Assembly: GCA_036726225.1 (NCBI GenBank)
Contig: DAIMCS010000005.1
Coordinates: 3,808 to 67,807 of the forward strand
Direction of reading: 5' to 3'
DNA from: Patescibacteria group bacterium
GTDB taxonomy: Bacteria; Patescibacteriota; Doudnabacteria; UBA920
DNA length: 64,000 bases
Position numbers and translations under genes: made by a program. The notes under the pieces are model-generated. The model was not told where the DNA came from. It searched no databases and saw only the letters and a program-made list of their open reading frames with translations. Shown piece after piece: positions 7,816 to 63,388 of the stretch; the first letter of the stretch is position 1; each line of letters opens with the position of its first letter.

Positions 7816-7848
7816 CCCCTCCCTAGCCCTCCCCAAACTTGGGGAGGG
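7816..7848. repeat. GC-rich palindromic mini-repeat, family 1 (CCCTCCC...GGGGAGGG), copy a; supplies the SD for the PEPC gene
   Basis: cccctccctagccctccccaaacttggggaggg matches the copies at 10203, 14579, 62964 and 63354. GGGGAGGG lies 8 nt upstream of ATG 7857. Confidence 0.6.
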
Positions 7849-7856
7849 AAATGACA

Positions 7857-9374
7857 ATGAAAAAACTATTTAGAAAAATCCCGACCACCATGGCCACGCA
7901 GCATCCCGACCATGCAGGGCGGCCGTTTTGGTACAAAGATCCATACATTCCGGCAATTGAAGAAGCCAAGGAATGTTTTTTAAATTTCAGCGAACTTGGC
8001 ATTACCGAATACAAATGGGATTGGGAGGGAAAATTGGTGGACGAATCTGTTTTAGAGCGTTTAATTGCCGAACATTTTGCCTATTTTAAAAAGCAACCCC
8101 TGGGCAAAGAAAGATTTTTAACTTTCCGTCTGCCAAACCCCAAAGTCCAAACCGAATTTAGGATGGGCCGGGCGCTTATGGGCATTGCGGGCGCAGCCGG
8201 CCTTGCCAAACAAGTCGGGCTCCATACTCCCCCTCTGTTTGAAGTTATTTTACCCATGACCGAAAGCGAAACCGAGATGCTCGAGATCCAGGAAGCTTTC
8301 CACGAAATCGCTTCTCTCAAGCATCCATTAAACCGTTTTGAAAAAGGCTTGCTTAGCCACGTTTTAATAATCCCGCTTTTCGAGCGCGTGGACACTATTA
8401 TTAATTCAAATGAGATACTGGAACGTTACCTCAAACTCCACAAAGCAAAATTTAAATTCAATCCGCCCTATTTAAGACCGTACACTGCCAGAAGCGACCC
8501 GGCGCTAAACTCAGGGCTTATCCCAACGGTCATTGCAGTAAAAATTGCACTCTCGCGATATAAAAAATTTGAAAAAAAACACAACATTCCCCTTTACCCC
8601 GTAATTGGCTGCGGCACGCTGCCTTTCCGCGGCGGACTTTTCCCAATTAACGTTAAAAGATTTATTAAGGAATATCCGGGCGTGCGCACCGTAACCATCC
8701 AAAGCGCGTTTAGGTATGATTTCCCCAAAGCTTCGGTTATTAAAGCCATTGCCACTTTAGAAAAAGATTTACCAAAAGGCAAGGCAGTAATAATTGCAGA
8801 CAGCGAAGAAGAAAAGTTAATCCACCTAATAAAACCATTCGAAGCGGCTTACAAAAATACTATTTCAGGCATTGCTCCAACCATAAACCGTTTAGCTCAT
8901 TTTTTTCCAAAGCGCAGGGAAAGGGTCCAGCATATCGGTTTGTTTGGATACTCCCGCGGCGAAGGCAAAGTAAAATTGCCGCGCGCTATTACTTTTACCG
9001 GTTCCCTTTATTCGCTTGGCGTGCCTCCCGAACTAATTGGCGCCGGACGCGGCATTTTAGCCGCAAAAAAAGCAGGCCAAGTTGGCCTGCTGGAAAAACA
9101 TTATGTAAATTTAAAGCACGATTTATATTTTGCAGGAAAATTCCTATACAAGCCGGGCTTGATTAACCTTAGTAAACATTCTAAAGCCTGGAAAAGCGTA
9201 CTTAAAGATGTGGAAGAAATAGAAAAATATTTGGGCAAGCCGCTTTCTGCAAAATACCTAAATGAGCAAGAGCATCAATTAATTTCTGCCAGGATCCACA
9301 AAAATTTATCGTCCGGTAAAAACCTTACAAGGCTAATTGAACAATCTGCGCAACTTAGAAGAAGTCTGGGCTAA
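7857..9374 (+). CDS. Archaeal-type phosphoenolpyruvate carboxylase (PpcA-like)
   Basis: N-terminal ...IPTTMATQHPD is the hallmark of atPEPC. About 505 aa. Start chosen at ATG 7857 (SD 8 nt upstream). The track start at 7839 is a TTG inside the repeat hairpin. Confidence 0.75.
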   Translation: MKKLFRKIPTTMATQHPDHAGRPFWYKDPYIPAIEEAKECFLNFSELGITEYKWDWEGKLVDESVLERLIAEHFAYFKKQPLGKERFLTFRLPNPKVQTEFRMGRALMGIAGAAGLAKQVGLHTPPLFEVILPMTESETEMLEIQEAFHEIASLKHPLNRFEKGLLSHVLIIPLFERVDTIINSNEILERYLKLHKAKFKFNPPYLRPYTARSDPALNSGLIPTVIAVKIALSRYKKFEKKHNIPLYPVIGCGTLPFRGGLFPINVKRFIKEYPGVRTVTIQSAFRYDFPKASVIKAIATLEKDLPKGKAVIIADSEEEKLIHLIKPFEAAYKNTISGIAPTINRLAHFFPKRRERVQHIGLFGYSRGEGKVKLPRAITFTGSLYSLGVPPELIGAGRGILAAKKAGQVGLLEKHYVNLKHDLYFAGKFLYKPGLINLSKHSKAWKSVLKDVEEIEKYLGKPLSAKYLNEQEHQLISARIHKNLSSGKNLTRLIEQSAQLRRSLG

Positions 9375-9580
9375 TTTTTTTCAGAATCATTCCCTTCTAA
9401 GTCCGGCGGATGCAAGATTTCTATGCTGTTCCCCTTATTTACCAAAAACTCATCCGGAATTTCCTTGTACTTTTTTGGGACTTTCTGGGTAGGGTTTAGC
9501 GCTTCCTGAGCCTCGGCTTCCGATATTGACTTCTTGTAGTCTGGCTCTAATTTGTAACTGCTGTCTAATTCTTCTGGCAT
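9371..9580 (-). CDS. Small acidic hypothetical protein
   Basis: ORF only; no recognisable motif. Confidence 0.25.
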   Translation of the reverse strand: MPEELDSSYKLEPDYKKSISEAEAQEALNPTQKVPKKYKEIPDEFLVNKGNSIEILHPPDLEGNDSEKN

Positions 9581-9620
9581 AAAGTTTAATTTATCTTATA
9601 ATATCAAATATACTAAAAAA

Positions 9621-10604
9621 ATGAAACTCCTAATAGTCGGTTCAGTCGCATACGATTCCATAAAAACGCCTTTTGGCAAGGCTAATAAAACCCTAGGCGG
9701 CAGCGCCACGTATTTTTCTTTGGCCGCGAGCTTTTTTACCAAACCTTCTCTGGTAGCTGTAGTTGGGCAGGATTTTAAAGATGAAGAAGTATTTAAACGC
9801 CTGGGGATAAACATTAGTGGGTTGGAAAAACAACCAGGCAAAACTTTTGCCTGGGGAGGGGAATATAGTTTTGATTTAAACTCCAGGAAGACTTTGTTTA
9901 CTCATTTGAATGTGTTTGAAAATTTTAAGCCAAAATTATCATCGGATCACAAAAAATCAAAATTTGTTTTTTTGGGCAACATCCACCCATCCCTTCAGCT
10001 GGATGTTTTAAAGCAGGTTAATGCGCCTAAATTTGTTGGGCTGGATACTATGAATTTGTGGATAGAAAAAACTTTAAAAGATTTGAAAACCGTTTTAAAA
10101 AAAGTTGATATTTTAATAATAAACGATTCAGAAGCGCGGGAGTTATCGCGGGAACATAATTTGCTGAAAGGCGCTAAAAAAATTCTGTCGCTAATGCAAT
10201 CACCCTCCCCTAGCCCCTCCCATCAAGGGAGGGGAACCAAAAACATTCCCTCCCCTAGAGGGGGAGGGTTAGGGAGGGGTGAAAAAATTGTGATCATCAA
10301 ACGCGGCGAATTCGGTTTGCTCATGTTCCAAAAAGGAAACATTTTCCATCTTCCCGGCTATCCGCTTGAAGATGTGGTTGACCCCACCGGTGCGGGCGAC
10401 AGCTTTGCCGGCGGGTTTTTTGGCTATTTGGCCAAGACCGATGATATTTCCTGGCCAAACCTAAAAAAAGCATGCGTCGCAGGCTCGGTTATGGCTTCTT
10501 TTTGTGTGGAAAAATTAGGGACTAAAAGGCTATTAGAAATTAAAAGCTTAGACATAACCCAAAGGCTAAAAGATTTTAAAACATTGACTCATTTTGAAAT
10601 TTAG
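9621..10604 (+). CDS. PfkB-family carbohydrate kinase (ribokinase-like) carrying an in-frame repeat-derived insertion
   Basis: DPTGAGDSFAGGF anion-hole motif. GC-rich repeat family 1 at 10203-10282 is in frame and encodes SPSPSPSHQGRG...GGGLGRGEK. Confidence 0.75.
   Translation: MKLLIVGSVAYDSIKTPFGKANKTLGGSATYFSLAASFFTKPSLVAVVGQDFKDEEVFKRLGINISGLEKQPGKTFAWGGEYSFDLNSRKTLFTHLNVFENFKPKLSSDHKKSKFVFLGNIHPSLQLDVLKQVNAPKFVGLDTMNLWIEKTLKDLKTVLKKVDILIINDSEARELSREHNLLKGAKKILSLMQSPSPSPSHQGRGTKNIPSPRGGGLGRGEKIVIIKRGEFGLLMFQKGNIFHLPGYPLEDVVDPTGAGDSFAGGFFGYLAKTDDISWPNLKKACVAGSVMASFCVEKLGTKRLLEIKSLDITQRLKDFKTLTHFEI
10203..10282. repeat. GC-rich palindromic repeat family 1, copy b (two tandem units) inside the PfkB coding sequence
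   Basis: ccctcccctagcccctcccatcaagggaggggaa followed by ccctcccctagagggggagggttagggaggggtg. Matches 14579-14614 almost base for base. Confidence 0.7.
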
Positions 10605-10647
10605 CTTATCTTAGTAAAAAATGAACTTTAACTGAAAAGAGGAAAAT

Positions 10648-10949: not shown

Positions 10950-10992
10950 CACCCAAAAACAAGAGGCGCGCTCGACGATGTCGAGCGCGCCC
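10950..10992 (-). terminator. Intrinsic terminator for the Clp-N gene
   Basis: ggcgcgctcgacgatgtcgagcgcgcc perfect palindrome preceded by an A-run on the plus strand. Confidence 0.5.
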
Positions 10993-11025
10993 CGGGTCAA
11001 ACCCAAAACGCGCTAAAAATTACGC

Positions 11026-11616
11026 TTACTCGTCATTTAAAATTTTTTCTACCTTTTCGACAAGTAGCTTAAGCCTAACGTATGCACGCAAGAGCTCGCC
11101 TTTTGGAACACCGTCTTCAAGTAAAAGCTCAATCCTGTCCAGATAAAAAATCACTCCGGACTCCGTTGGCACTTCAGGCAAGGTTTGGACAACTCCGCGC
11201 CTGATTTGTGCGTCCAGTTTATCCCAAGTCACGCCAAGATCATCTAAAATCCTTGCCCCAACACAATCCTGCAGCTTGAGCATACCCAGCAACAGGTGTT
11301 CGGTGCCAATGTGGCGATGATGGACCCTTTCCGCTTCTGCCTGGGAGTAACCAAGAATAAGCTTGCATGAATCAGACATCGGTAGGTCTATGGAAGTACT
11401 GACCTTTTCACGAGCCGGAGATCTTTCTTCTACGGCTTTGCGAATAGACGGACAAGGATCCTCTACCCCCATCAGTCGGCCCAAAAAAGATTTGTCTTCC
11501 CTGGCAAGCCCTAAAAGCAAATGCTCTGTTTCGATGCGAACATGACCGAATTGGGAAGCCTCGTAACGAGCAAAGAAAATTACCCTTCTGGCTCTTTCTG
11601 TGTATCTTTCGAACAT
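11026..11616 (-). CDS. Clp N-terminal (Clp_N double repeat) domain protein
   Basis: Two repeats of the TEHLLLGL-type Clp_N motif. No AAA domain. Confidence 0.65.
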   Translation of the reverse strand: MFERYTERARRVIFFARYEASQFGHVRIETEHLLLGLAREDKSFLGRLMGVEDPCPSIRKAVEERSPAREKVSTSIDLPMSDSCKLILGYSQAEAERVHHRHIGTEHLLLGMLKLQDCVGARILDDLGVTWDKLDAQIRRGVVQTLPEVPTESGVIFYLDRIELLLEDGVPKGELLRAYVRLKLLVEKVEKILNDE

Positions 11617-11873
11617 TGTTTCCCCCTTTTGGGATGCTATCTGAAAAAAGTATACCTTAACGGCAAGCTGTTTGACAACCTAAAAATATCTGTTAGAATA
11701 ATTTTATAAAATCAAAGTAAGTTTAAAAAAAACACCCTTAAAGCTTTTGGAGGCGACGTAGGTGTTTTTTTAATTAGTTGCTAGACTCAAGATTAAAGTT
11801 TTTAGGATTATCATCTTTAATCTGTAATCTTTAATCTATTAACTAATTAGGGGGAGAAAGCAAAAGCAAAGCT

Positions 11874-12944
11874 ATGACAAGTGGCAAAATAATGGCCGAA
11901 TATATATGGCTAGATGGCCGCAAACCCACAGCCAAGCTCAGGTCCAAGACTAAGATTGTAAACGGGCCTGTAAGGAAATTGGAAGATATCCCTATGTGGG
12001 GATTTGACGGTTCTTCCACCGAGCAAGCCGAAGGAAGTTTTTCCGACTGTATGCTCAAACCGGTGTACTATGTGCCGGACCCAATAAGCAAGGGCGATAA
12101 CCTTTTGGTAATGTGCGAAGTTTTAAACGCCGACGGCACTCCGCACCAAACCAATACCCGGCACATTTTGGAAAAAGTGGCGGAAAAATACAAGGACCAG
12201 GAAGCCTGGTTTGGCATTGAGCAGGAATATACCCTTTACGGTTCCAACGACCGCCCCTTTGGCTGGCCCAAAGAAGGTTTCCCCCATCCACAAGGGCGCT
12301 ACTACTGTGGCGTAGGGTTTGACGAAGTCCACGGCAGGCCGCTGGTGGAAGCGCACCTTAAAGCTTGTTTAGATGCAGGCTTGGCCATTTCCGGCATTAA
12401 CGCGGAAGTTATGCCGGCGCAGTGGGAATTCCAGGTTGGCACTTTAGGGCCGCTGGAAGTGGCTGACCAGCTTTGGCTAGCCCGCTGGCTTTTGTACCGC
12501 CTAGGTGAAGAATACGGCGCGTACGCTAAGCTAGACCCCAAACCCATGACCGGGGATTGGAATGGCGCAGGCGGACACACTAACTACTCAACCCGCGCAA
12601 TGCGCGAAACCGGTGGTATGGAAGTGGTTAAGCAGGCTTGCGAAAAGCTTGGGCAGTACCGAATGCAGCATATGCGCGTTTACGGCGCTGACAACGACAA
12701 GCGTTTAACCGGCAAGCACGAAACCTGTTCTTATAAAGAATTCCGCTACGGAGTAAGCGATCGCGGCGCCTCTATCCGCATCCCGATGGAAACTGCCAAC
12801 AAAGGCCGAGGCTACCTGGAGGACAGGCGCCCGGCAGCAAACTTAGATCCTTACCAAATTTGCACAGCATTAATAGAAACCACCTGCGGCGAAGGTTTTA
12901 ACCCGGACACTTACGGCTGGGGAAACTTTGACCCTACGAGGTAA
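11874..12944 (+). CDS. Glutamine synthetase type II (eukaryote-like GSII)
   Basis: AEYIWLDG N-terminus and GDWNGAGGHTNYST motif. About 356 aa, typical of GSII rather than GSI. Confidence 0.85.
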   Translation: MTSGKIMAEYIWLDGRKPTAKLRSKTKIVNGPVRKLEDIPMWGFDGSSTEQAEGSFSDCMLKPVYYVPDPISKGDNLLVMCEVLNADGTPHQTNTRHILEKVAEKYKDQEAWFGIEQEYTLYGSNDRPFGWPKEGFPHPQGRYYCGVGFDEVHGRPLVEAHLKACLDAGLAISGINAEVMPAQWEFQVGTLGPLEVADQLWLARWLLYRLGEEYGAYAKLDPKPMTGDWNGAGGHTNYSTRAMRETGGMEVVKQACEKLGQYRMQHMRVYGADNDKRLTGKHETCSYKEFRYGVSDRGASIRIPMETANKGRGYLEDRRPAANLDPYQICTALIETTCGEGFNPDTYGWGNFDPTR

Positions 12945-13516: not shown

Positions 13517-14506
13517 ATGCCCCAAAAAAGCAAGCAACTTGCAGTAGAATTACATAGCCATCTAGGCGCCGCGGTAAGCCCGGCAATACTCTGGGCCATT
13601 GCCCACCGCCAGGGCATAAAACTTCCCAGTAAAAATTACTGGGATTTTGAAGATATGATTACGATGACCGGCGCGGAGAAGAATAAAGATTTAGACGAAA
13701 TGCACCGCCACTTTTTCCACTGGACAGAGCTTATACAATCATCACCCGAAGCCATAGAAGAATCTGTAAAGCTCACCATTTCCGGCGGATACCGCAAAAA
13801 CAACATTACAGTCCATGAGCTCCGTTTTGACCCCATGATGCGCAACCGCGGCGGTGAGCGGGATTTAGACCATATTATTATGTCCGCCCTTTGGGGAATG
13901 GATAAAGCCATTTTGGAATACCCCCAGGTCAAAGCCGGAATAATTATAGGTATGCACCGAATGCATAGCTTTAAGCAAAATGAAGTTAAAATACAAAAAG
14001 CCATCCGCTACAAAAATCGAGGCATAATTGGCATTGACCTTGCCGGCCCCAACCGCAGCAGCTTTTCCATGCAAAAACACAAAGATTTATTTATGATGGC
14101 AAAAAAGCACGGCCTTGGAGTTACCATCCACACCGGCGAGGAAAAACAACTGGCAGAAATGCGCTATGTAGTTAGAGAAATAAAGCCGCACAGAATTGGC
14201 CACGGCGTGGAATGCGTGAGGGATAAAAAGCTAATGGCAGATTTGGTAAAAAATAATATTCTTTTGGAAATTTGCCCGACTTCCAACTTACGTAACAGTG
14301 TTATTAAAAACCTAGCGGGATTAAAATCGGTTATAAAAACTTTGCTTAAAAATAAAGTTAAGTTTGCCATTTGCACCGACGGACCGGAAATGTACAAAAC
14401 CGGCATCCACAAAGAACAGCAGTTTTTGCTGGAAAACAAAATAATGACACAAAAAGAAATTGCCCAGTCAAGCCGCCTCGCGCTTGAAGCAAGTTTTATT
14501 CGATAA
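13517..14506 (+). CDS. Adenosine deaminase family amidohydrolase
   Basis: ELHSHLGAA and IHTGE metal-binding motifs. Confidence 0.7.
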   Translation: MPQKSKQLAVELHSHLGAAVSPAILWAIAHRQGIKLPSKNYWDFEDMITMTGAEKNKDLDEMHRHFFHWTELIQSSPEAIEESVKLTISGGYRKNNITVHELRFDPMMRNRGGERDLDHIIMSALWGMDKAILEYPQVKAGIIIGMHRMHSFKQNEVKIQKAIRYKNRGIIGIDLAGPNRSSFSMQKHKDLFMMAKKHGLGVTIHTGEEKQLAEMRYVVREIKPHRIGHGVECVRDKKLMADLVKNNILLEICPTSNLRNSVIKNLAGLKSVIKTLLKNKVKFAICTDGPEMYKTGIHKEQQFLLENKIMTQKEIAQSSRLALEASFIR

Positions 14507-14513
14507 TTATATT

Positions 14514-14616
14514 CCCTCCCCCTTGCCTGCCTACCGCAGGCAGGTGGGGAGGGCAAGGGAGGGGGTAAAAGCATCCGCCACCCTCCCCTAACCCCTCCCA
14601 TCCAGGGAGGGGAATT
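14514..14616. repeat. GC-rich palindromic repeat family 1, copy c (composite, two hairpins) between convergent genes
   Basis: ccctcccccttgcctgcctaccgcaggcaggtggggaggg... then accctcccctaacccctcccatccagggaggggaa. Confidence 0.7.
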
Positions 14617-15501
14617 TTATTTTGCGGGCTTTTTTTCGTATGTAAGCAAAATTAATCCTGCTGACACAGGAATTAAGGAGACCCATTGCCACAAGGTTGG
14701 CGACTGATGTAAAAAAATATAGGCAAAAAATAATGTGCTTAAAGGAGCTACCCCCGAGAACGAAGTCGCCTTAGTAACGCTAATTCGATGAATGCCCTCT
14801 ACCCACAAAAACTTGGTAAATCCTAAAACCACAAAACCATTTAAAATTAGAAGCCACAAGACCCCTTTAACTTCATGGAAAGGCGCAGTAGCTTGAAGCA
14901 AATAAGCCAAAAGGAAGAAAAAAGGGAAACTAAATAGGTTGCGCAAAAATAAGATAGTTTCGCTGCTAATAATTTTACGTAAGCTTTGTTGGTAATAATT
15001 CCCCAGAGTAGCGCAAGCACAAGCAATTAAGATAAACCAATCCCCGCCGGAAAAATCTAAACCTTCCTTCGGCCATAAAATAATTACTGCTCCTATTAAG
15101 ATCAAAACTGCCCCTGTTGTATGCTCTTTGGAGAAAGGTTGTTTTTTCCATACGTTAAAAAATAGATAGCTGAAAAATAATTCCATTAAGGCAAGAATGC
15201 TGGCGTTGCCGGCAGATGTGAATTTTAAACCGGCATAATACAAACCATAGTAAAGCCATCCAATCAAAAACGATATTATCAAAATATGTTTATAGATACC
15301 CTCTTTACGTAATTCAAAAAACTTTCCGCGAATTAGCATTAAGGCGGCAAAAAATACGCAAGAAAACATCGCGCTAAAAGCCAGTGAATAAACTGCTGAT
15401 ACGGTTGAATAAGACAGGATAGTTATAATCGGAAATAAGCCCCACAAAAGCTCATTTGCTATAATTGCTAACTCCCCTTTTCTGGTTTGGCTTAAATTCA
15501 T
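14617..15501 (-). CDS. EamA-like DMT superfamily transporter
   Basis: About 10 TM segments with a duplicated EamA-like architecture. Confidence 0.65.
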   Translation of the reverse strand: MNLSQTRKGELAIIANELLWGLFPIITILSYSTVSAVYSLAFSAMFSCVFFAALMLIRGKFFELRKEGIYKHILIISFLIGWLYYGLYYAGLKFTSAGNASILALMELFFSYLFFNVWKKQPFSKEHTTGAVLILIGAVIILWPKEGLDFSGGDWFILIACACATLGNYYQQSLRKIISSETILFLRNLFSFPFFFLLAYLLQATAPFHEVKGVLWLLILNGFVVLGFTKFLWVEGIHRISVTKATSFSGVAPLSTLFFAYIFLHQSPTLWQWVSLIPVSAGLILLTYEKKPAK

Positions 15502-17073: not shown

Positions 17074-18624
17074 CTAGCTTGTCATATTCTTGGGGCGTAG
17101 CCAAGCGGTAAGGCACGGGCCTTTGAAGCCTGCATTCCCAGGTTCGATCCCTGGCGCCCCAGCCAAGACAAAACTTAGGTTAGTTTTAGAGAAATTTTTT
17201 CGTGCGACGCAGAGCGTCGCCCATTGTTTTACGGGGGATTCTTCAACTTTTTTATTTCGCAAAATCAGGTTCGAGCCGAAGATTTTTTGGAGGGAGGATT
17301 TTTTGGAGGGGAGGTCGTCTCCTTTTGCTATTTCGTCTAGCGTTGAAGCGTCCTTTATCCACTCTCGCATAGGTTCGAGCCACAGACTTCCCCCTCTTTG
17401 CGACTTGGCCAGAACTTCCTCAACCGATCTCTTTTCGGACATAGCCTCTCGCTTCTTGGCGAGGTAGGTTTCTCGGTCTATGTCCTGTTCAACAAAGAGG
17501 TCGGTAAGGCGGTCTATCTTGGCGTTAAAGACGCTTAATCGCTCCCGTAAGCTGTGGACTAAGGTTGCCGTAGTCTTGGAGCTACCTTTCTCGTCCTCGT
17601 CTGCGAGAGCCAATAACCCTTGCGTCCAATCGCTCGGCATTGCGTAATGTGTGAGTATTTCGGATAGGTCGGCGGCGAGGACTTCTTCTCTCACAAAAGG
17701 TTGAGAGCAACGAGCCGCCGATTTTTTTGTACAGCGATAGTAGATGTGGCCTTTCTGCTCCTCTGCGGTTATGCCCATACCGCACTCCCCGCAACGCAAA
17801 AGCCCACAAAAGGCTTTCGGTTCTTTATCTTTTCTCATTGGATGTCCACGACGGACAATTACGATCTGAACTTTATCAAAAAGGTGTTTGTCTATGAGTG
17901 GCGTATGTTTGCCCTCGTACATTTCGCCAGCGTAGCGGAAATGTCCGTAGTAAAAAGGATTAACGAGAATAAATCTTATTCTGTCTTTATGTATGGCGTT
18001 GCCATTTAAACTCTTAACCCCGTTTTCAAAAAGGAATGTAGAAATATCTTCAAGACGAGAGTTGCCTTTAGCGTAAAGCTCAAAGGCGGCTCTGATAAAT
18101 TTCGCTTTCTTCCGATCAACGACTATCGTCTTTGCTCGCACATCATTGAGGTAGCCAACGGGAGCAGTGCCGGGAAACTGTCCGAGCCGTGCCTTATGAT
18201 GTAGCCCTCGGCTTGTATTGGAGCTTAGGTCACGGATAAATTGGTTAGCCATACCAAACTCAACCGACATCATAAGTACATTGTCGTTTGAGAGATGGCT
18301 TCTGTCGTGCGTTTGAATACGCTGAATCGTCCCCTGTTGGAGTAGCCAACTGATCTGTCCGCCGTCCACGGGATTACGAGCCAAGCGATCTAGCTTCCAA
18401 CAAATAATGCCCTGTGCCTCGCCAGTCTGTATGCGTAGGAGCATATCGTTAAAGATCGGGCGACCGGGCATTTTTGCAGTTCGCTTTTCTACAAATTCGG
18501 CCGCAACTTCTAAGCCCTCGCTTTTCGCAAGCGAACGAAGTTCGTCTAATTGACCTTCGATGGAGAGGACTTGTTTATCCTCGACATCAGTAGATTTTCT
18601 AGCGTAAAGAAAGTATCTATTCAT
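17074..18624 (-). CDS. Large serine recombinase (integrase/resolvase family)
   Basis: N-terminal YARKSTD...Q catalytic Ser motif. Recombinase domain. CxxC...C zinc ribbon and coiled coil. ATG at 18624 (MNRYFLYARKST); the track start at 18702 is upstream. The 3' end reads across attL into the tRNA. Confidence 0.85.
   Translation of the reverse strand: MNRYFLYARKSTDVEDKQVLSIEGQLDELRSLAKSEGLEVAAEFVEKRTAKMPGRPIFNDMLLRIQTGEAQGIICWKLDRLARNPVDGGQISWLLQQGTIQRIQTHDRSHLSNDNVLMMSVEFGMANQFIRDLSSNTSRGLHHKARLGQFPGTAPVGYLNDVRAKTIVVDRKKAKFIRAAFELYAKGNSRLEDISTFLFENGVKSLNGNAIHKDRIRFILVNPFYYGHFRYAGEMYEGKHTPLIDKHLFDKVQIVIVRRGHPMRKDKEPKAFCGLLRCGECGMGITAEEQKGHIYYRCTKKSAARCSQPFVREEVLAADLSEILTHYAMPSDWTQGLLALADEDEKGSSKTTATLVHSLRERLSVFNAKIDRLTDLFVEQDIDRETYLAKKREAMSEKRSVEEVLAKSQRGGSLWLEPMREWIKDASTLDEIAKGDDLPSKKSSLQKIFGSNLILRNKKVEESPVKQWATLCVARKNFSKTNLSFVLAGAPGIEPGNAGFKGPCLTAWLRPKNMTS
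17091..17165 (+). tRNA. tRNA-Gln (anticodon UUG)
   Basis: 75 nt. Near-identical in arms to E. coli tRNA-Gln (TGGGG...GCCAAGCGGTAAGGCA...TTCGAnTCC...CCCCAGCCA). Anticodon loop CUUUGAA. Encoded CCA. Confidence 0.85.
17162..17317. repeat. IR-A (left terminal repeat of the element, about 156 bp)
   Basis: Reverse-complement match to 24641-24805, with one roughly 30-bp divergent patch. Confidence 0.8.
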
Positions 18625-18684
18625 AGTTGTAGTATACCACAACGGATGGTTTAAAACACAACTTTCAGCTATAATGGGATAAAT

Positions 18685-18891
18685 ATGAAAAGTGAAGCCC
18701 AAAAATTAGGCGATAATCTAAAACGAATAAGAACAGAGAAAGATATATCGCAGGGAGATATTGCACGAGCCTTAGAAGTGGATAAGAGTTTTGTCAGTAA
18801 TATAGAAAACGGCAAGACTAACCCGACACTTGCGACGATTGCAAAGATAGCAAAGGCAATCGGTGTTTCGGTTGATGAGTTATTAAAGTAA
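18685..18891 (+). CDS. XRE-family HTH transcriptional regulator
   Basis: Classic HTH_3: ISQGDIARALEVDKSFVSNIENG. Confidence 0.8.
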   Translation: MKSEAQKLGDNLKRIRTEKDISQGDIARALEVDKSFVSNIENGKTNPTLATIAKIAKAIGVSVDELLK

Positions 18892-18896
18892 AAATT

Positions 18897-20429
18897 ATGG
18901 CGACTTTAAATTGGATAGGAAAAGAAGCAGTAGTGAATCACGATAAAGAAGTGCCTTTTAAACTGCTCCAAAAAGTGCCGAGTGCTTCGGTGGGTAAGGA
19001 ATCAAAAAACCTTATCATTCACGGAGATAATCTTGAAGCTCTAAAGGCACTTATACCTTTTTATAAAAGTAAGGTGAAGTGCATTTATATTGATCCACCT
19101 TACAACACAGGCAACGAGGGTTGGGTATATAACGACAAAGTTAATTCTCCCAAAATCCAAGAATGGATTAAGAAGGTTGTTGGACGAGAGGGAGAAGATT
19201 TGACCCGCCACGATAAATGGATATGTATGATGTATCCAAGAATGAAGTTGCTACGCGACTTACTTGCAAACGATGGTGTAATTTTCGTAAGTATTGATGA
19301 CAACGAACAGCACTATCTAAGAATGGTTATGGACGAGATTTTTGGCGAAAAAAACTTTGTTGCTGACTTCATTTGGAATCACAGGAAATCAGGTCAAAAT
19401 GATATTGATGTATCTTTGTCTCATAATTATACGCTCTGTTATGCAAAAAAAAGAGCTGGACTCTTTTTGAATCGTCTCGCTATTGATGAAGGAAAGTTTT
19501 CTAATCCAGATAGCGATCCACGGGGCGATTGGGTTGCCGACCCTATGGACGCCCCCGCAATCCGAGAAAATTTAATGTATCCAATCATTAACCCAAATAC
19601 GAAACAAACATTTTTACCCCCTGTTGGGAGACATTGGCGATTTACTAAGGAAAAATACGAACAAGCGTTGAAGGATAATAGAATTGTTTTCGGGAAAACT
19701 GGCAAGTCCAAACCACAATTCAAACGCTTTAAAAGCGAAGCAGAGGAAAAAGGCATAAATGTTTTTACTATTTGGGACGATGTAGGAACTGCAACAGAAG
19801 GAACAAAAGAAATAATGGAGCTTTTTGGTGGAAAAAAAATCTTTGATACTCCTAAGCCAACTTCGTTTATTAAGAAAATTATTAAAATTGCTACGAAAGA
19901 TAATTCAATCGTATTGGATTCTTTTGCTGGTTCTGGGACAACTGGACACGCCGTTTTGGATTTAAATAAAGAAGATGGAATCAAACGCAGTTTTATTTTA
20001 GTAGAAATGGAAAATGATGTTGCTAAGAAAATTACCGCCGAGCGTATAAAGAGGGCTATCAAAAAGTATAAATATGATGACGGCTTTGAATATTGCGAAC
20101 TAGCCAAACCGCTTTTCAATGAGAAAGGGCAAATCAATGAGCAATGCACATATGGAGAACTTGCTACTTATATTTATTTTACCGAGACGCGAACAAATGC
20201 GGAAAAGAAGACTATCAAGTCGCCATTCATAGGAGAAAGTGGAGGCGTTTCTTACTACCTTATTTATGAAGGCAGAGATAAGAACGATCTCACTCGTTCA
20301 GCCCTTACGAAGTTGAAAATAAAGAAGCCAGCCGTAGTTTATGCGGATCGCTGTTTGGTGGACGAAGATGAGTTAAGAGAAAAAGGGATTGTATTCAAAC
20401 AAATCCCATACGAGATAAAAGTTTACTAA
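18897..20429 (+). CDS. Type III restriction-modification methyltransferase (Mod, N6-adenine, beta class)
   Basis: DPPYN motif IV precedes FAGSGTTG motif I (permuted order). The adjacent Res helicase-nuclease supports the call. Confidence 0.8.
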   Translation: MATLNWIGKEAVVNHDKEVPFKLLQKVPSASVGKESKNLIIHGDNLEALKALIPFYKSKVKCIYIDPPYNTGNEGWVYNDKVNSPKIQEWIKKVVGREGEDLTRHDKWICMMYPRMKLLRDLLANDGVIFVSIDDNEQHYLRMVMDEIFGEKNFVADFIWNHRKSGQNDIDVSLSHNYTLCYAKKRAGLFLNRLAIDEGKFSNPDSDPRGDWVADPMDAPAIRENLMYPIINPNTKQTFLPPVGRHWRFTKEKYEQALKDNRIVFGKTGKSKPQFKRFKSEAEEKGINVFTIWDDVGTATEGTKEIMELFGGKKIFDTPKPTSFIKKIIKIATKDNSIVLDSFAGSGTTGHAVLDLNKEDGIKRSFILVEMENDVAKKITAERIKRAIKKYKYDDGFEYCELAKPLFNEKGQINEQCTYGELATYIYFTETRTNAEKKTIKSPFIGESGGVSYYLIYEGRDKNDLTRSALTKLKIKKPAVVYADRCLVDEDELREKGIVFKQIPYEIKVY

Positions 20430-20430
20430 T

Positions 20431-22704: not shown

Positions 22705-22710
22705 AAAGAT

Positions 22711-24558: not shown

Positions 24559-24563
24559 GGGAG

Positions 24564-24597
24564 TTTGCCGATCTTCCAAGACGGCAAAAGTTTTTAA
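24564..24597 (+). terminator. Putative terminator of the XRE-mod-res-OLD operon
   Basis: ttgccg...cggcaa hairpin followed by aagttttta. Confidence 0.35.
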
Positions 24598-24640
24598 CAC
24601 GCGCACGGGTAGGGTGGGGCAAGTGTTATGTCTTGCGTGA

Positions 24641-24805
24641 CGACCTCCCCTCCAAAAAATCCTCCCTCCAAAAATCTTCGGCTTTGTATTCTTGAATCTG
24701 TATTTTGCGAAATAAAAAAGTTGAAGAATCCCCCGTAAAACAATGGGCGACGCTCTGCGTCGCACGAAAAAATTTCTCTAAAACTAACCTAAGTTTTGTC
24801 TTGGC
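24641..24805. repeat. IR-A' (internal inverted copy of the left end)
   Basis: Reverse complement of 17162-17317. Shares the 5-bp GCCAA core with IR-B. Confidence 0.8.
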
Positions 24806-25091
24806 TCGTCTTTATAGTACCGCTCGAACGATTTTCATGGAAGATTTGGGCTAGTTTACCTAGTCACGCGGGTAGTCACTCGCTCCTTGCCCGAATGACT
24901 AGGGAGTATTGCTGAAAGCCCTAGTGAACACGGGGTCTTTCATCAATACCATCTCACAAAAAAGCAGTCCTACTTCACTCCGCTCCTCCTAGCGTCCGTC
25001 GCTCCGTGAAAATGTCACGGGTTCGTGTCTGGTGGCTCGGCCTTTGCTTCCGTCCTGCTAATTCTTTTTGCTCGTTGGTGGGGGGGGGTAA
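24801..25091. repeat. IR-B (internal inverted copy of the right end, 291 bp)
   Basis: Perfect reverse-complement match to 31010-31299, except G9 versus C8 in the homopolymer tract. Confidence 0.85.
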
Positions 25092-25146
25092 ATCGTGATT
25101 GAAAAATAAAATAAAAAATCGTTCAAGGCCGCTAGGCCGAGCGAAT

Positions 25147-26478: not shown

Positions 26479-26703
26479 AGGAGCGATTACTCGCTCCTTG
26501 TCGTGTGCCTATATGTTTTCGTTATGTTCATTCCGTCTTTAACCAATCGGGGAACGATTGCCTAAAGTTCGGGATTAGCTCGTATTCCCCAAGCTGTCCC
26601 GCCCGCAACATCTTTTTAGCAAGAGAAGCGAGGGTAATGAAACTTAATGAAGTTTATACAACAAATGCCGTAAATAAGTCAAGGTAATGGTAAAATAACA
26701 CAA

Positions 26704-28712: not shown

Positions 28713-28720
28713 AAATGGCT

Positions 28721-29239: not shown

Positions 29240-29360
29240 ATAAGATTTTGTTAAACAACTGCTTAATTAAGGCCGAACGACTAGACGGCCAAGAAACATT
29301 ATCTACATTTTAGCACTATTTTAAGTTTTTCTTTGGCGGCAAATTCTTTGCTCTTCAAAC

Positions 29361-29975: not shown

Positions 29976-30066
29976 AATGTTTTATGGTTAATGTTAAATT
30001 ATTTCAAAAGTTCTTCCATTGGAACGCCTAACGCTTTGTGGCAAATTCTTAAATCTATTTTACCAC

Positions 30067-30930: not shown

Positions 30931-31009
30931 AGAGGAATACCCTAATTATACGCCTACCGACCCCCTCAAACGAGGCCTTCTGCTTCCGTCCTATCCTTTT
31001 TTCTTCGTC

Positions 31010-31299: not shown

Positions 31300-31341
31300 C
31301 AAAAAACTCATCCACGTTAGGCGGATGAGTTTTTTGTTTTG
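31300..31341 (+). terminator. Displaced intrinsic terminator of tRNA-Gln (right half of the ancestral attB)
   Basis: ctcatcc-acgttaggc-ggatgag hairpin followed by ttttttgtttt, immediately after attR. Confidence 0.55.
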
Positions 31342-40071: not shown

Positions 40072-40080
40072 TCTTTATTT

Positions 40081-40166
40081 CCTTCTCCCTTTGGGAGAAG
40101 GTGGTCCGCCTCTGGCGGACCGGATGAGGGTTGGGAGAGATGTCGCCGTAGGCGACAGAGAGGGCT
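40081..40166. repeat. GC-rich palindromic repeat family 2 (CCTTCTCCCTTTGGGAGAAGG + GGTCCG...CGGACC), copy f
   Basis: Matches 47534-47590 with a changed loop. Contains three stem-loops. Confidence 0.7.
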
Positions 40167-45898: not shown

Positions 45899-47662
45899 TT
45901 AGGATGCCTTTACATCAACTATTCTTAGCTTAAGGTTTTTGCTTCCGTTCCATCCGTCTTCTATTAATTCGCAGGCTATGTCCACGTTAGTAATTTGTAA
46001 TGGTTTAAAGTTAAATGCTATGGCAGAAAAGGTGGAATTATTTAACCCTAAATTTAGCTGCAGGTGCTGACTTTGCGTCCCCACTTGCCGCTGCGACAAA
46101 ACCTTGGCTGCCTTAACCAAAAATTTGGGCTTAGGGTTACCAACTCCAAAAGGTTCTAAATTTTTAATTTGTTCCAAATTTTCCACATTTATGTCAAAAG
46201 CCTGAAGCTCGGCCTCCAGCTCTAAAACTTTATCTGCGTTAGTTTCATTAATGTGCAAATCTGCATGCTCTAAAATTTTTTGGTAAAACAAATCGAACTT
46301 GGAAATTTCTACCGTCAAACCGGCAGCTTGTTTGTGTCCGCCAAACTTCACTATGTGTTCAGAACTGAATTTTAAGGCCTCAATTAAGTTAAATTCCCCG
46401 GCGGTCCTGGCCGAACCTGTGCACAAATTTTCCGTCTGCTCCAGCACAATTACGGGCTTAAAATACTCCTCCGCAAGCCTGCCGGCCACAAGCCCCATTA
46501 CACCCTTAGGCCAGCCCTGCCCGACCATAACCAGGACTTTCCTGTCCATTAGCATTATGGCTTTTTCCTTAGCCTCGCTTAAAACGGTCTGGGTGAGCTG
46601 CTGGCGGCGTTGGTTTATTTGTTCCAGCCTGGCTGCTTTTTCTTTTGCCAAAAAAGGATTTTGCTCCAGCAGCAAATCTAAAGCAATCCCCGCGTGCTCA
46701 AGCCGGCCGGCGGCATTCAAGCGGGGCGCAATTACAAAACCCAACGTATAAGTGTCAGGCAGCTTTTGGCTAAAATCCAACCCACCGGCCTGGGCCAAAG
46801 CTTTCAGGCCAATCCACTTTGTCTTAGCCAAAACTTTAAGCCCGTATTTTACAAGGATACGGTTTTCTCCAAGCAAACTATGGCAGTCAGCCACAGTGCC
46901 TATTGCCACAAGATCCAGCAGCCACTTCTCGTATCCTTCGGCATATTTTGGAACCTGGAGTTTGGTTCTTGGATCTTTCAAAATAGCACACGCAAGCTTA
47001 AAAGCCACACCCACCCCTGTAATTTCCCTGTACGGATAACTATCGTTACCATTTTTGGGATTAATTAACGCATAAGCGTCCGGCTCCTGCCCAATTATTT
47101 CGTGGTGATCGGTTATTATAAAATCTATGCCGCGGGCTTTGCACCAATCCGCCGCATCTATAGAGTTAGTTCCGCAATCCACGGTAATAATTATTTTTGC
47201 CCCATTTTGGGCAATTTTTTCCAAAGCTTCAATGTTTACCCCGTAGCCTTCGGAAAAACGGTCCGGGATGTAGCTGTCGGCTTCCACGTCTAAAAAATTA
47301 AAAGTTTGCCTAAGTACCGCATTGGCCGTGACCGCGTCTGCGTCGTAGTCGCCGTAAATGCAAATTTTTTCGCGGTGGTTAATTGCCTGCCAAATCCTGT
47401 CCACGGCCTGTTGCATATCCTTAAAAAGAAAAGGGCTGTGTAACTTTTCATAAGTCGGGTTTAAAAAATCGGCTACTTGATCTTTATTGCTTAGTCCGCG
47501 GTTATAAAGCAGCTGCGATAGCAGCTCCAAATTTCCTTCTCCCTTTGGGAGAAGGTGGTCCGTCGACTGACGGACCGGATGAGGGGTCTGTAACAAAAAA
47601 TTTACGATCTCTATCCCTTTTTCCTGAGGAATTTGCGATTTTAGTTTCCAAAGTTTTGGCAT
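45899..47662 (-). CDS. recJ: Single-stranded-DNA-specific exonuclease RecJ; N-terminus contains an in-frame family-2 repeat
   Basis: DHH motifs DCGTNS and TDHHE plus a DHHA1 domain. The repeat at 47534-47590 encodes ...HLLPKGEGNLELL. Confidence 0.8.
   Translation of the reverse strand: MPKLWKLKSQIPQEKGIEIVNFLLQTPHPVRQSTDHLLPKGEGNLELLSQLLYNRGLSNKDQVADFLNPTYEKLHSPFLFKDMQQAVDRIWQAINHREKICIYGDYDADAVTANAVLRQTFNFLDVEADSYIPDRFSEGYGVNIEALEKIAQNGAKIIITVDCGTNSIDAADWCKARGIDFIITDHHEIIGQEPDAYALINPKNGNDSYPYREITGVGVAFKLACAILKDPRTKLQVPKYAEGYEKWLLDLVAIGTVADCHSLLGENRILVKYGLKVLAKTKWIGLKALAQAGGLDFSQKLPDTYTLGFVIAPRLNAAGRLEHAGIALDLLLEQNPFLAKEKAARLEQINQRRQQLTQTVLSEAKEKAIMLMDRKVLVMVGQGWPKGVMGLVAGRLAEEYFKPVIVLEQTENLCTGSARTAGEFNLIEALKFSSEHIVKFGGHKQAAGLTVEISKFDLFYQKILEHADLHINETNADKVLELEAELQAFDINVENLEQIKNLEPFGVGNPKPKFLVKAAKVLSQRQVGTQSQHLQLNLGLNNSTFSAIAFNFKPLQITNVDIACELIEDGWNGSKNLKLRIVDVKAS
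47534..47590. repeat. GC-rich palindromic repeat family 2, copy g (inside the recJ 5' coding region)
   Basis: ccttctccctttgggagaaggtggtccgtcgactgacggaccggatgagggg. Confidence 0.7.
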
Positions 47663-58674: not shown

Positions 58675-58763
58675 AGACTTTCATTATTACTCTCCCCAAT
58701 TTATGGGGAGATGTCCCGACATCAGTCGGGACAGAGGGGTTAAGCTAAAGCATTAACCTCTCC

Positions 58764-59410: not shown

Positions 59411-59776
59411 CTAGGAGTTAGGAGTTAGATTTTTAATCATTGTATTTAACATCCGCATTATTTCATCAAGCAAAGGGTCAACTTTTGAAAAATTTAAATT
59501 CTTGCCAAAAGGTAATTTTTTAGCAACAGCGATGTGACTTTCAAGCTCGGCGCCGGAACCAAAAGCAATTACTAAAAATTGACGGAATTCTTTTTTACTG
59601 CCAAGACGTCGGCCTTCGGCTATATTAGCTGGGATAGACACTCCGGCTCTTCTAGTTTGTGAAGTTAATCCATATATCTCTATTTTTGGATAGTCATCAG
59701 TTAACTCATAGATGGCTACCACAAGTTCCACTGATTTCTGCCAAACAATTAAATCTTTATAACTTTGGATTTCCAT
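59411..59776 (-). CDS. Four-helix-bundle protein (23S rRNA IVS protein family)
   Basis: YKDLIVWQKS...AEG pattern typical of PF05635. Confidence 0.6.
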   Translation of the reverse strand: MEIQSYKDLIVWQKSVELVVAIYELTDDYPKIEIYGLTSQTRRAGVSIPANIAEGRRLGSKKEFRQFLVIAFGSGAELESHIAVAKKLPFGKNLNFSKVDPLLDEIMRMLNTMIKNLTPNS

Positions 59777-59783
59777 CTAATTT

Positions 59784-61026: not shown

Positions 61027-61410
61027 CTACGAATCCCTGCGCAAGACCCGATGGGGCAGGGCGGATTTGGCCCAAAAATTAATTAATAAACCTAATTTCA
61101 AATTTAAAACCTTTAAATATCTTTGGACTTGGGCAAAATCATCTTCATTTAAAAAAGGCTTTGCCTTAACTTCAACTAAAATTTTATCAAACAAAACTAA
61201 ATCCGCGCGATTGCCGGTACCCGAAGCGACCAATTCTCTTCTGCATGGAATTTCCAGTTCTTTTGCCCTGTCCTCAAAACTATCGCAAAACTGCCTTTCT
61301 TTAGCAAACCTTCCCAGCCTATTTTGGACATAAAAACAAATGCCGTTGATTTGAAAACATTCATCAGCATATAAGACTTTGGTTTTGTCCACTTGGTATC
61401 GTGTTTGCAT
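61027..61410 (-). CDS. GxxExxY-like PD-(D/E)xK family small protein, hypothetical
   Basis: DLVLFDKILVEVKA nuclease-like motif. About 127 aa. Flanked by inverted cgaatcaacgaata / cgaatctgcgaa modules. Confidence 0.4.
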   Translation of the reverse strand: MQTRYQVDKTKVLYADECFQINGICFYVQNRLGRFAKERQFCDSFEDRAKELEIPCRRELVASGTGNRADLVLFDKILVEVKAKPFLNEDDFAQVQRYLKVLNLKLGLLINFWAKSALPHRVLRRDS

Positions 61411-61461
61411 TCGTTTATTCGTAGTTATTCGTTGATTCGTTCCATTCGCAGATTCGATGTA

Positions 61462-62463: not shown

Positions 62464-62547
62464 AAAATTATTGTAATAAACTACAGAATACTATTTTAAA
62501 CCTACAGATAACTACAGAAGTTCCGTAAAAATCTCTGGTTTTCCAAA

Positions 62548-62591
62548 TTCTGTAGTCATCTGTAGTAATTTATAGCTTTTGTAGTTTATTC
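62548..62591. promoter_or_regulatory. Conserved CTGTAG triple-repeat motif (copy 2), overlapping the ruvX stop
   Basis: Matches 55587-55630. An inverted partner ctacagataactacag sits at 62499-62514. Confidence 0.4.
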
Positions 62592-62962
62592 CTACTATCC
62601 AAATAATTTTGCAACAAAATTTGTGCTGCTAAACTGTCCAGATCTTTTTTACCACCGCTGATATTTTCCGCCATAGCCGATGATAAGCGCTCGTCAGTAA
62701 TATCTATTTTAATATCTATTAATTTCTCCAATTTCTCTTTGAAAGCTTTCACCTCTTCCGTTTTTTTTGTTTCCTGTCCACTCATATTTAGCGGCCAGCC
62801 TAGAACAATTTGTGATACCTGATTTTCGTCGATGACCGATTTTATAGTTTCCCAAAATTCTTTTGGTGAAAGTATTTTAAGCTCTCTGGCAAACGTCAAA
62901 GATTCGTCGGAAATTGCCAAACCAATCCTTTTTTCACCAAAATCAATTCCAAGGGTTTTCAT
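62570..62962 (-). CDS. ruvX: Holliday-junction resolvase-like YqgF/RuvX
   Basis: LGIDFGEKRIGLAISD N-terminus. Confidence 0.85.
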   Translation of the reverse strand: MKTLGIDFGEKRIGLAISDESLTFARELKILSPKEFWETIKSVIDENQVSQIVLGWPLNMSGQETKKTEEVKAFKEKLEKLIDIKIDITDERLSSAMAENISGGKKDLDSLAAQILLQNYLDSRNKLQKL

Positions 62963-63351
62963 ACTCCCCTCCCCTTATTAATAAGGGGAGGTTGGGAGGG
63001 GATATTCTTTATTTCCTGGATTATCCTCTCAACAACTCCTTCTAAATTGTTTAATACTTCGTTATCGTAAAACCTCAGTACACTTATATTTTTGGAATTA
63101 AAAAATCGGGTTCTATTTTTGTCATAAGTAATGTTGTCTTTTTGCATATGCTGACTACCGTCTAACTCTACTGCCAACCTTAAAGACGGACAATAAAAGT
63201 CGGCTATAAATTTTCCCACACTATATTGCCTTGTAAATTTAAAACCCATAATTTGATTTCTTCTTAATACTGACCACATTTTTCTTTCGGCATCTGTGGA
63301 ATTATTTCTCAATTCTTTTCTGAAACCTTTTAAAATTTTATCCTGATACAT
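62959..63351 (-). CDS. DUF559 (Vsr-like endonuclease domain) protein, selfish-type insertion
   Basis: FYCPSLRLAVELDGSQH pattern of DUF559. Flanked by GC palindromes at both ends. Confidence 0.65.
   Translation of the reverse strand: MYQDKILKGFRKELRNNSTDAERKMWSVLRRNQIMGFKFTRQYSVGKFIADFYCPSLRLAVELDGSQHMQKDNITYDKNRTRFFNSKNISVLRFYDNEVLNNLEGVVERIIQEIKNIPSQPPLINKGRGV
62964..63002. repeat. GC-rich palindromic repeat family 1, copy d (encodes the DUF559 C-terminus; supplies the SD for ruvX)
   Basis: ctcccctccccttattaataaggggaggttgggaggggat. Confidence 0.6.
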
Positions 63352-63353
63352 AT

Positions 63354-63388
63354 CACCCCCTAACCCCCTCTTATTATAAGAGGGGGAA
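63354..63388. repeat. GC-rich palindromic repeat family 1, copy e (upstream of the DUF559 start)
   Basis: caccccctaaccccctcttattataagagggggaa. Confidence 0.55.

Follow-up and report, generated by a model that had tools for sequence, protein, structure and literature searches.

What are the short GC-rich repeats that recur through this 64,000-nucleotide stretch of Patescibacteria DNA (contig DAIMCS010000005.1; hereafter the window), and do they serve the genes beside and within which they lie? The original prediction described them as palindromic mini-repeats resembling MITEs (miniature transposable elements with inverted repeats) or repetitive extragenic palindromic (REP) sequences, mobile hairpins that the host had exapted as ribosome-binding sites, terminators, and surface loops. 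We find a real, dispersed, non-random family that also occurs in other genomes, but its members are three-armed motifs rather than simple palindromes, and the kind of element is one that has already been described. They are probably members of the dispersed intrastrand triplex motif (TM) DNA repeats of the BoxC/PIT/TMECO kind known from E. coli, here linked to a gene cassette encoding a DUF559 protein and having incidental effects on their neighbours.

The octamer CCCTCCCC occurs 10 times on the two strands of the window, compared with 1.65 +/- 1.43 expected from dinucleotide shuffles (none of 100 shuffles reaches 10). Repeats are present at each of the five loci originally named, 7816-7848 (unit a), 10203-10282 (b), 14514-14616 (c), 62964-63002 (d), and 63354-63388 (e), in a background that had been called AT-rich and is only moderately so (GC 42%). 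The consensus proposed for them, CCCTCCCCTARCCCCTCCCATCMAGGGAGGGGAA, is exact for b1 (10203-10236) and c2 (14581-14614); the other units are diverged relatives. Loci b and c each consist of two inverted units, giving seven units in the CCCTCCCC-type family, of which a repeat finder groups 7814-7849, 10201-10236, and 14579-14614 together. A scan for GC-rich hairpins added three units that had been missed, with the same architecture and other arms, at 40081-40130 (f1), 47535-47584 (f2), and 58691-58739 (g).

All ten units share a single layout, and the strand given for each is its G-rich one. On the G-rich strand, a pyrimidine arm is followed by a loop, a Watson-Crick purine arm, a linker of about 3 nt, and a second, mirrored purine arm; on the C-rich strand the order is a pyrimidine arm, a linker of 2-3 nt (TAG, TAA, AA, or TTG), a mirror-image pyrimidine arm, a loop, and a complementary purine arm. 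This is the layout of the class II purine-motif intrastrand triplex (Holder et al. NAR 2015, PMC4666352). With the G-rich strand single-stranded, the third arm could lie in the major groove of the hairpin, held there by reverse-Hoogsteen pairs (G.G-C, A.A-T, or T.A-T). An ITxF-like scan of the window, in which stems had to be perfect over 7 nt or more and third arms to obey G.G-C, A.A-T, or T.A-T with at most one mismatch, returned 10 units, compared with a mean of 0.125 and a maximum of 2 in 40 dinucleotide shuffles. The block order that defines an ITxF motif (pyrimidine stem, purine stem, and second purine stem, each of 6-15 nt) is found in the window, and the antiparallel third block follows the reverse-Hoogsteen rule with no more than one mismatch in all ten units. 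Hairpin loops lie within the ITxF range of 1-6 nt in a, b1, b2, and c2 and measure 7-8 nt in d and e when only perfect stems are counted; in c1, f1, f2, and g (four of ten units) the loop spans 20-24 nt and itself holds a small extra hairpin. The second-loop linker is TTA in b2, c2, and e, CTA in a and b1, CAA in c1, and TT in d.

Outside the window, the pattern CCCTCCC N3-5 CCCTCCC N3-12 GGGAGGG was scanned over metagenome and viral collections and matched at least 120 contigs in each, the metagenomic loci ranging in GC from 39 to 74%. Among the matches listed, 131 distinct metagenomic copies comprise 87 with a mirrored third arm, five with a direct one, and 39 that are symmetric and uninformative. 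Across 178 elements with varied arms, the third-arm base opposite G-C is G at 1291 of 1307 positions, and opposite A-T it is A at 172, T at 66, and another base at 7 (G-strand notation). The third-arm base pattern is therefore the purine-motif rule. The commonest linkers in these elements are TAA, CAG, and CGG on the C-strand, that is, TTA, CTG, and CCG on the G-strand, as in E. coli. Such a rule argues against three other candidates for what is conserved: a triplex of the pyrimidine motif or in RNA, a simple alternative hairpin, and a G-quadruplex. Whether placed on the C-rich strand or in RNA, a triplex of the pyrimidine-motif kind (C+.G-C) is disfavoured, since the third arm has A where T would be needed at 66 of 245 positions; a Watson-Crick hairpin made through the extra pyrimidine arm would be weakened by the mirroring of that arm, and units of families f, g, and e are unable to make one. 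We infer that the constraint acts on DNA structure rather than on RNA or protein.

Putatively viral contigs also carry the pattern: it is present in at least 120 contigs classed as viral in IMG/VR (L227-L346), many of them with head-to-head pairs 60-80 nt apart. Within the window, f1 (40079..40136, +) has the arms CCTTCTCCC / GGGAGAAGG / GGATGAGGG and an extra hairpin in the linker, and lies upstream of an open reading frame (ORF) at 39757-40071 (-), and f2 (47533..47588, +) lies within recJ. Their first 32 nt (40077-40108 and 47531-47562) are 100% identical, one copy being intergenic and the other genic, which suggests recent copying or gene conversion. Unit g (58689..58741, +) has the arms TCTCCCC / GGGGAGA / AGAGGGG, likewise with an extra hairpin in the linker, and stands just 3' of rpe.

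The gene between units d and e (62959..63351, -) encodes a DUF559, YcjD-like endonuclease of the Vsr fold. The protein matches Pfam PF04480 (5e-33) and, over its full length, the NCBIfam YcjD model (3.7e-28); it also matches the N. gonorrhoeae structure 3hrl (5e-20) and, more weakly, the intron homing-endonuclease domain 3r3p (0.006). Unit e (63352..63390, -) forms the upstream (5') end of the cassette: it begins directly after the stop codon of an HtrA-like protease gene (from 63389, -), and its third arm GGGGGTGAT abuts the DUF559 ATG. Unit d (62962..63003, +) forms the downstream (3') end and abuts the ATG of ruvX (62570..62962, -); the DUF559 ORF terminates in ...IPSQPPLINKGRGV*, with its TGA overlapping the ruvX ATG (ATGA) inside the repeat. 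The description of copy d as encoding the last 13 or so DUF559 codons while adjoining the ruvX start was thus accurate. Its treatment, with copy e, as an independently exapted hairpin was not: the two units are the inverted ends of one DUF559 cassette and, flanking the gene, fill the entire space between the htrA-like stop and the ruvX start.

Empty and filled sites were compared at the gene level for the PEP carboxylase upstream region, PfkB, and htrA-ruvX. At the last of these, the gene order htrA-[slot]-ruvX-galT-[slot]-tpiA is conserved among relatives and the content of the slots varies. Both slots are empty in L220 (RuvX 73% identical), where htrA and ruvX are separated by a 59-nt spacer with an unrelated hairpin. 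L219 has a PDDEXK_3 gene in the galT-tpiA slot and, between htrA and ruvX, a GIY-YIG gene flanked by an inverted repeat of its own. L221 has TM-DUF559-TM between htrA and ruvX, like the window, and its contig ends before the second slot, which in the window holds a PDDEXK_3 / GxxExxY gene (61027-61410). The PDDEXK_3 gene of L219 is flanked by TACGAAA / TTTCGTA repeats. A "23S rRNA IVS" four-helix-bundle gene (59411-59776) lies between rpiB and rpe in the window, in a slot that is empty in L220; small, selfish-looking genes pepper the htrA-ruvX-galT-tpiA-rpiB-rpe block of the window. Elsewhere in the window, an 86-aa GIY-YIG nuclease gene (4326-4604, -) lies between the halves of a perfect 12-nt inverted repeat, ACCGTTGCAGAC (4331-4342) and GTCTGCAACGGT (4593-4604), and so sits in a hairpin loop.

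The association between DUF559 genes and TMs extends well beyond the window. A formal scan found a TM within 300 nt at 11 of 13 DUF559 loci and within 41 nt at nine of them, on a background of three TMs in 1.2 Mb of control loci. Where a TM abuts the gene on each side (six loci), the G-rich strand of the upstream unit coincides with the sense strand of the gene and the downstream unit faces the other way, so that the two are oriented to each other like the head-to-head pair c1/c2. Conversely, all three DUF559 homologues in TM-selected metagenome contigs abut a TM or lie within 15 nt of one, and a homologue in a TM-selected viral contig (L308) is flanked by TM-like hairpins. Loci chosen by their DUF559 gene in unrelated lineages likewise have TMs adjoining it (L209, L214, L218, L222, L224, and L225), and TM-bracketed DUF559 genes are found in CPR (candidate phyla radiation), Desulfuromonadales-like, Chloroflexota, and other contigs. 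Among 120 DUF559 homologues, 89 have Pro-containing C-terminal tails (20.7% Pro, compared with 2.2% in the core), and 14 tails read through into a Gly/Arg arm.

E. coli, from which repeats of this class have long been known, has a DUF559 gene of its own. In K-12 (L207, NC_000913.3 1351000-1351800), the stop codon of ycjD falls in a degenerate TM, which is followed by a partial duplicate of the 3' end of ycjD, and a strict TMECO lies 168 nt downstream of ycjD. Of 5426 complete E. coli genomes, 3346 have the ycjD region; in the rest, the eefRABCD operon occupies the site, so that there is no clean empty site and no excision junction can be read. The genomes with ycjD belong to phylogroups A, B1, and C; in the others, B2 among them, eef takes its place. 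TMECO counts amount to 19-30 in strains of A, B1, and C (K-12, B, HS, 55989, IAI1, W, and E24377A), 1-2 in CFT073, UTI89, IHE3034, S88, and other B2 strains, and 6-15 in D, E, and F strains (supplement to PMC4666352). Salmonella reportedly has none. Counts that track the presence of ycjD in this way fit a causal role for the gene but are confounded by phylogeny.

The DUF559-TM link is correlative, and to judge from sequence DUF559 may be a candidate mobility partner of the repeats. The nuclease would copy or maintain the units much as the REP-associated tyrosine transposase (RAYT) does for REPs, and the solo and paired units would be gene-less derivatives of the DUF559 cassette or its homing targets. 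In its widest form, the proposal is that YcjD-like DUF559 nucleases are the missing protein partner of BoxC/PIT/TMECO-type repeats: the autonomous element would be a cassette of about 0.45 kb (TM, DUF559, inverted TM), and the thousands of solo and paired TMs of bacteria from E. coli to CPR, among them those within genes and in viral contigs, would derive from it by loss of the gene or serve as its homing sites, recognised through the folded single strand as REP hairpins are by RAYT. We advance this tentatively, with more doubt than confidence.

Several points weigh against reading the repeats as triplex motifs tied to a DUF559 cassette. Triplex formation has been demonstrated only for E. coli TMECO oligonucleotides, and TM calls at some loci were made by eye. 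TMECO showed no footprint in vivo and is not tied to known mobile elements (PMC4666352). DUF559 genes are rare beside TMs, with four in 1.8 Mb of TM-selected DNA that holds more than 250 TMs, so that any action of the nuclease must be in trans. The window has no DUF559 copy with arms of the a/b/c type, such copies being found in other contigs (L132 and L181); TMs at the DUF559 loci L222, L308, and L225 are arranged otherwise or stand 75-200 nt from the gene; and insertion junctions and target duplications are not defined for the solo units, for which no duplication search was made.

Several of these observations would also suit a different relationship, in which DUF559 is a selfish, homing-type gene that inserts between pre-existing TM pairs and the TMs spread by other means (replication slippage, gene conversion, or another enzyme). 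The cassette ends have the orientation of the gene-less pair c1/c2, as they would if such a pair had been invaded, and the DUF559 fold is shared with the intron homing endonuclease 3r3p. Other small nuclease genes (GIY-YIG and PDDEXK_3) occupy equivalent slots with inverted repeats of their own. At two loci, L224 (about 515-600 and 1165-1250) and L214 (1464-1500 and about 1897-1960), the DUF559 cassette stands between direct repeats of a 50-75-nt segment, which comprises the upstream TM and its leader as far as the ATG; insertion beside an existing unit, with duplication of that unit, would leave such an arrangement. This account leaves the abundance of TMs and their conservation across phyla unexplained, and the contrast between 19-30 TMECOs in ycjD-carrying phylogroups and 1-2 in B2, confounded by phylogeny as it is, would fit a causal role of the gene. 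On balance, we consider it rather unlikely.

Are the repeats, instead, hairpins that the host has put to use? The case for ribosome-binding sites rests on units a and d. Unit a (7814..7849, -) reads on the + strand as the third arm CCCCTCCC, TAG, CCCTCCCC, a loop, and GGGGAGGG, the last of these (7841-7848) lying 8 nt upstream of the ATG, as called on the source contigs, of an archaeal-type PEP carboxylase (PEPC) gene (7857..9374, +); in unit d, the corresponding GGAGG-containing purine arm lies 4-5 nt before the ruvX ATG. Their placement as Shine-Dalgarno (SD) sequences was therefore correctly described, but their availability is doubtful. RNA folding at the two 5' ends pairs both purine arms completely, in stems of -19.3 (PEPC) and -22.1 (ruvX) kcal/mol, and leaves a third arm unpaired only in unit e, before DUF559, where it abuts the start codon of a gene belonging to the same cassette. 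In two relatives (L005 and L006), the repeat and an SD are both missing upstream of PEPC, which implies that nothing needed supplying. Nor are start codons enriched after the purine arm among the 135 metagenomic copies in the matches listed (36, compared with 36 on the opposite side; random 31%), in a test where ORF noise is high in GC-rich contigs.

Copy c, proposed as a terminator, does lie between convergent genes, for adenosine deaminase (13517-14506, +) and EamA (14617-15501, -). Unit c1 (14512..14568, +) contains the small extra hairpin, at 14524-14542, within its first loop, and c1 and c2 together fold into three hairpins. Only c2 (14577..14614, -) fits the pattern of a hairpin followed by a T-run, on the + strand, and E. 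coli members of the class have neither promoter nor terminator activity (PMC4666352).

A third role, as a surface loop, was proposed for copy b, and the repeat does lie in frame inside a PfkB-family sugar kinase (9621..10604, +). Homologues of this kinase bear Patescibacteria and Doudnabacteria names, which marks the organism as a CPR bacterium. Unit b1 (10201..10236, -) encodes SPSPSPSHQGRG and its inverted partner b2 (10245..10282, +) encodes IPSPRGGGLGRGE, so that the kinase reads SPSPSPSHQGRGTKNIPSPRGGGLGRGEK across residues 189-219, a 31-residue segment in place of three residues in the closest solved structure, 3kd6. In an AlphaFold model with a mean pLDDT of 91.5, the insert is a coil between helix 181-192 and strand 223-227, with a pLDDT of about 50-75 and predicted disorder. 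Comparison of orthologues identifies the segment as an insertion. Most of 120 orthologues have no insert at all, and about 30 have other Pro/Gly-rich inserts in the same loop (e.g., TSPQPSPQKGRE and GRGVPSATEGTPPP); of 80 orthologues from other phyla, 79 are 299-304 aa long and insert-free. A profile search of genome contigs returned almost only non-CPR orthologues, and so provides an insertion-free outgroup and not a census of the repeat in CPR. In the related contig L005, a unit at the same codon position is identical to b1 at 34 of 36 nt in proteins that share 63% of their residues, so the repeat is more conserved than the surrounding coding DNA. Differing Pro/Gly-rich, repeat-derived inserts are carried in this loop by many CPR lineages (L005, 5434-5465; L006, 10601-10622). 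The PfkB surface loop is thus a recurrent insertion site or a retention hot spot; exaptation, as opposed to insertion, finds no sign of function in a segment predicted to be disordered.

Residence within genes is not confined to the kinase. Unit f2 is in frame near the N-terminus of the RecJ exonuclease (45899..47662, -), where it encodes TPHPVRQSTDHLLPKGEGN; this segment precedes the conserved N-terminal RecJ helix, and solved RecJ structures align from residue 47 only. In other low-GC contigs, in-frame units occur in interdomain linkers of CarA and a PurM-like protein, at the N-terminus of CheW, and in a TonB-receptor-like ORF. The units within genes encode disordered loops of the form Pro/Ser...Gly/Arg. 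Arms made only of pyrimidines or only of purines cannot encode stop codons, which plausibly explains why copies with a length that is a multiple of three are tolerated in frame and survive in loops and linkers.

Taken as a whole, host exaptation of MITE/REP-like mobile hairpins at PEPC, ruvX, copy c, and PfkB would account for the two well-placed GGAGG arms, the third arm of unit e beside the DUF559 ATG, the terminator-like form of c2, and a lineage-specific loop in PfkB. It meets buried arms, relatives that manage without them, starts that are not enriched, E. coli elements without terminator or promoter activity, a disordered loop, and two units (d and e) that are parts of one gene cassette, and we regard it as improbable. 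For triplex motif repeats, the SD-like arms before PEPC and ruvX and the terminator-like c2 would be by-products that are possible but look incidental.

It is very unlikely that the conserved feature is an RNA element, either a hairpin that stabilises or terminates transcripts or a mimic of the anti-SD sequence (CACCCUCCCCUAA is similar to the 3' tail of the 16S) that would titrate SD-like arms or sequester them. Single units and the pair do fold into very stable hairpins (-17 to -74 kcal/mol, with z down to -5.8), and many copies occupy transcribed intergenic or genic positions. However, some units are sense with respect to transcription (a, b1, and d) and others antisense (b2 and e), and the third arm obeys the purine-motif rule, T opposite A-T included, a motif stated not to form in RNA (PMC4666352). 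The third arm is also mirrored rather than direct, which makes an equally good alternative Watson-Crick hairpin impossible, and an Rfam scan of the whole window at gathering thresholds found two tRNAs only and no RNA family at the repeats. A G-quadruplex on the G-rich strand (GGG-A-GGGG-CTA-GGGG-A-GGG), with an i-motif on the C-rich strand, deserves almost no credence as the conserved feature, and we reject it: family-1 units do have four tracts of three or more G with short loops, but f1, f2, g, d, e, and the DUF559-flanking units elsewhere lack four G3 tracts and yet keep the three-arm mirror layout, a quadruplex needs neither the Watson-Crick pyrimidine arm nor the mirror relation, and nuclear magnetic resonance (NMR) excluded a quadruplex for TMECO (PMC4666352).

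Other repeats in the window and in a relative are of different kinds. Two long inverted repeats lie within 17074-31308, one of 296 nt (24792-25087 and 31013-31308, 99%) and one of 105 nt (17161-17265 and 24702-24806, 100%) that starts at the 3' end of a tRNA gene (17091-17162). They lie around the gene of a serine recombinase (17074-18702) and those of an N6/N4 methyltransferase and a ResIII helicase, and the region may be an integrated or invertible restriction-modification element. Between 55381 and 58676, segments of 75 nt and 57 nt (families D1 and D2) recur in three to four diverged tandem copies; the same stretch holds consecutive small ORFs (about 119 aa) that Pfam does not match, in what looks like a tandem paralogue array. 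In the related CPR contig L006, a separate repeat family, some 150 nt long, bounded by GCGGAGC...GCTCCGC and with two pyrimidine/purine hairpins inside, is present in three copies within 6 kb (6230-6390, 10955-11105, and 11860-12020).

Recognising the repeats as triplex motifs extends this kind of element to the ultra-small genomes of the CPR, and their residence in frame in PfkB, RecJ, CarA, and a PurM-like protein is a behaviour unreported for these repeats. For the annotation and modelling of CPR proteins, it means that "PSPxPSPxxGRG" segments are repeat-derived and are not functional motifs. The bracketing of DUF559 genes offers a tractable enzyme candidate for the repeat family and, equally, a testable function for the orphan ycjD and the DUF559 family. 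Searches of the available literature turned up nothing pertinent on a link between DUF559 and repeats or on in-frame repeats in CPR.

How, then, do the units compare with systems already known? With MITEs such as Correia, RUP, and Nezha, they share small size, lack of coding content, dispersal, and the occasional donation of promoters, terminators, or coding segments; they differ in having no terminal inverted repeats from a known insertion sequence and no known transposase, with the proviso that no search for transposases or target-site duplications was made. H-DNA likewise involves pyrimidine or purine tracts that are mirror-repeated and could form a triplex, but in the window units the Watson-Crick partner arm is on the same strand, giving an intrastrand triplex in single-stranded DNA rather than one extruded from a duplex. 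REPs and their paired form, REPINs, are also short, GC-rich, structured repeats in many copies and inverted pairs, and the REPIN-RAYT system also places a single-copy nuclease-type gene between inverted repeat copies. The gene in the window, however, encodes a Vsr-fold PD-(D/E)XK nuclease (DUF559) rather than an IS200/IS605-type Y1 transposase, the units are three-armed, their mobilisation is here only hypothetical, and the REP tag GTAG or CGTC is absent from the flanks of all ten window units.

For the copies within genes, the closest parallel is with the Rickettsia palindromic elements (RPEs) reportedly described by Ogata et al. in 2000, which are short structured repeats in frame in protein-coding genes, tolerated as extra surface segments. 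The same behaviour (an in-frame position in a loop or linker, with orthologues that lack the insert) is seen in PfkB and RecJ and, elsewhere, in CarA, the PurM-like protein, and CheW. RPEs are nevertheless unrelated in sequence, longer (about 100-150 bp), simple palindromes without a third arm, and confined to Rickettsia.

BoxC/PIT elements (PIT standing for potential intrastrand triplex), which are the nearest match overall, are said to have been described by Bachellier in the 1990s and by Hoyne and Maher in 2000. To our knowledge, BoxC/PIT/TMECO repeats have been known for about 30 years without their function, origin, or means of spread being known. The two sets share their block order on one strand (pyrimidine, a loop of 3-6 nt, purine, a 3-nt loop, and mirrored purine), the triad rule, including a third-arm T opposite A-T, and the linkers TTA and CCG; in both, units are solo or in inverted pairs with many copies per genome, and the strict TMECO of E. 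coli adjoins ycjD, a homologue of the window DUF559 gene. The E. coli element reads CCCTCNCCC N3-6 GGGNGAGGG N3 GGGNGAGGG, with a second loop of TTA in type A and CCG in type B; inverted pairs are frequent, and its single strands form a triplex in vitro by circular dichroism and NMR (PMC4666352). It is linked to locally variable regions, and the enzyme that mobilises it is not known (PMC4666352). The window units differ in their 8-nt arms (CCCTCCCC and similar, compared with CCCTCNCCC), in the extra loop hairpin of four of ten units, and in their Patescibacteria/CPR host. Three of the ten lie inside ORFs (b1 and b2 in PfkB, f2 in RecJ) and d lies in the DUF559 tail, whereas TMECO is reportedly always intergenic (PMC4666352). 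The strict TMECO regular expression, which does find the E. coli copy beside ycjD, has no match on either strand of the window, so the window units are a different family of the same kind. The DUF559 bracket is absent from Holder et al. (PMC4666352), in which ycjD and DUF559 go unmentioned. What is new is therefore the presence and density of such repeats in a CPR genome, their frequent in-frame residence in conserved genes, and their systematic bracketing of YcjD-like DUF559 genes.

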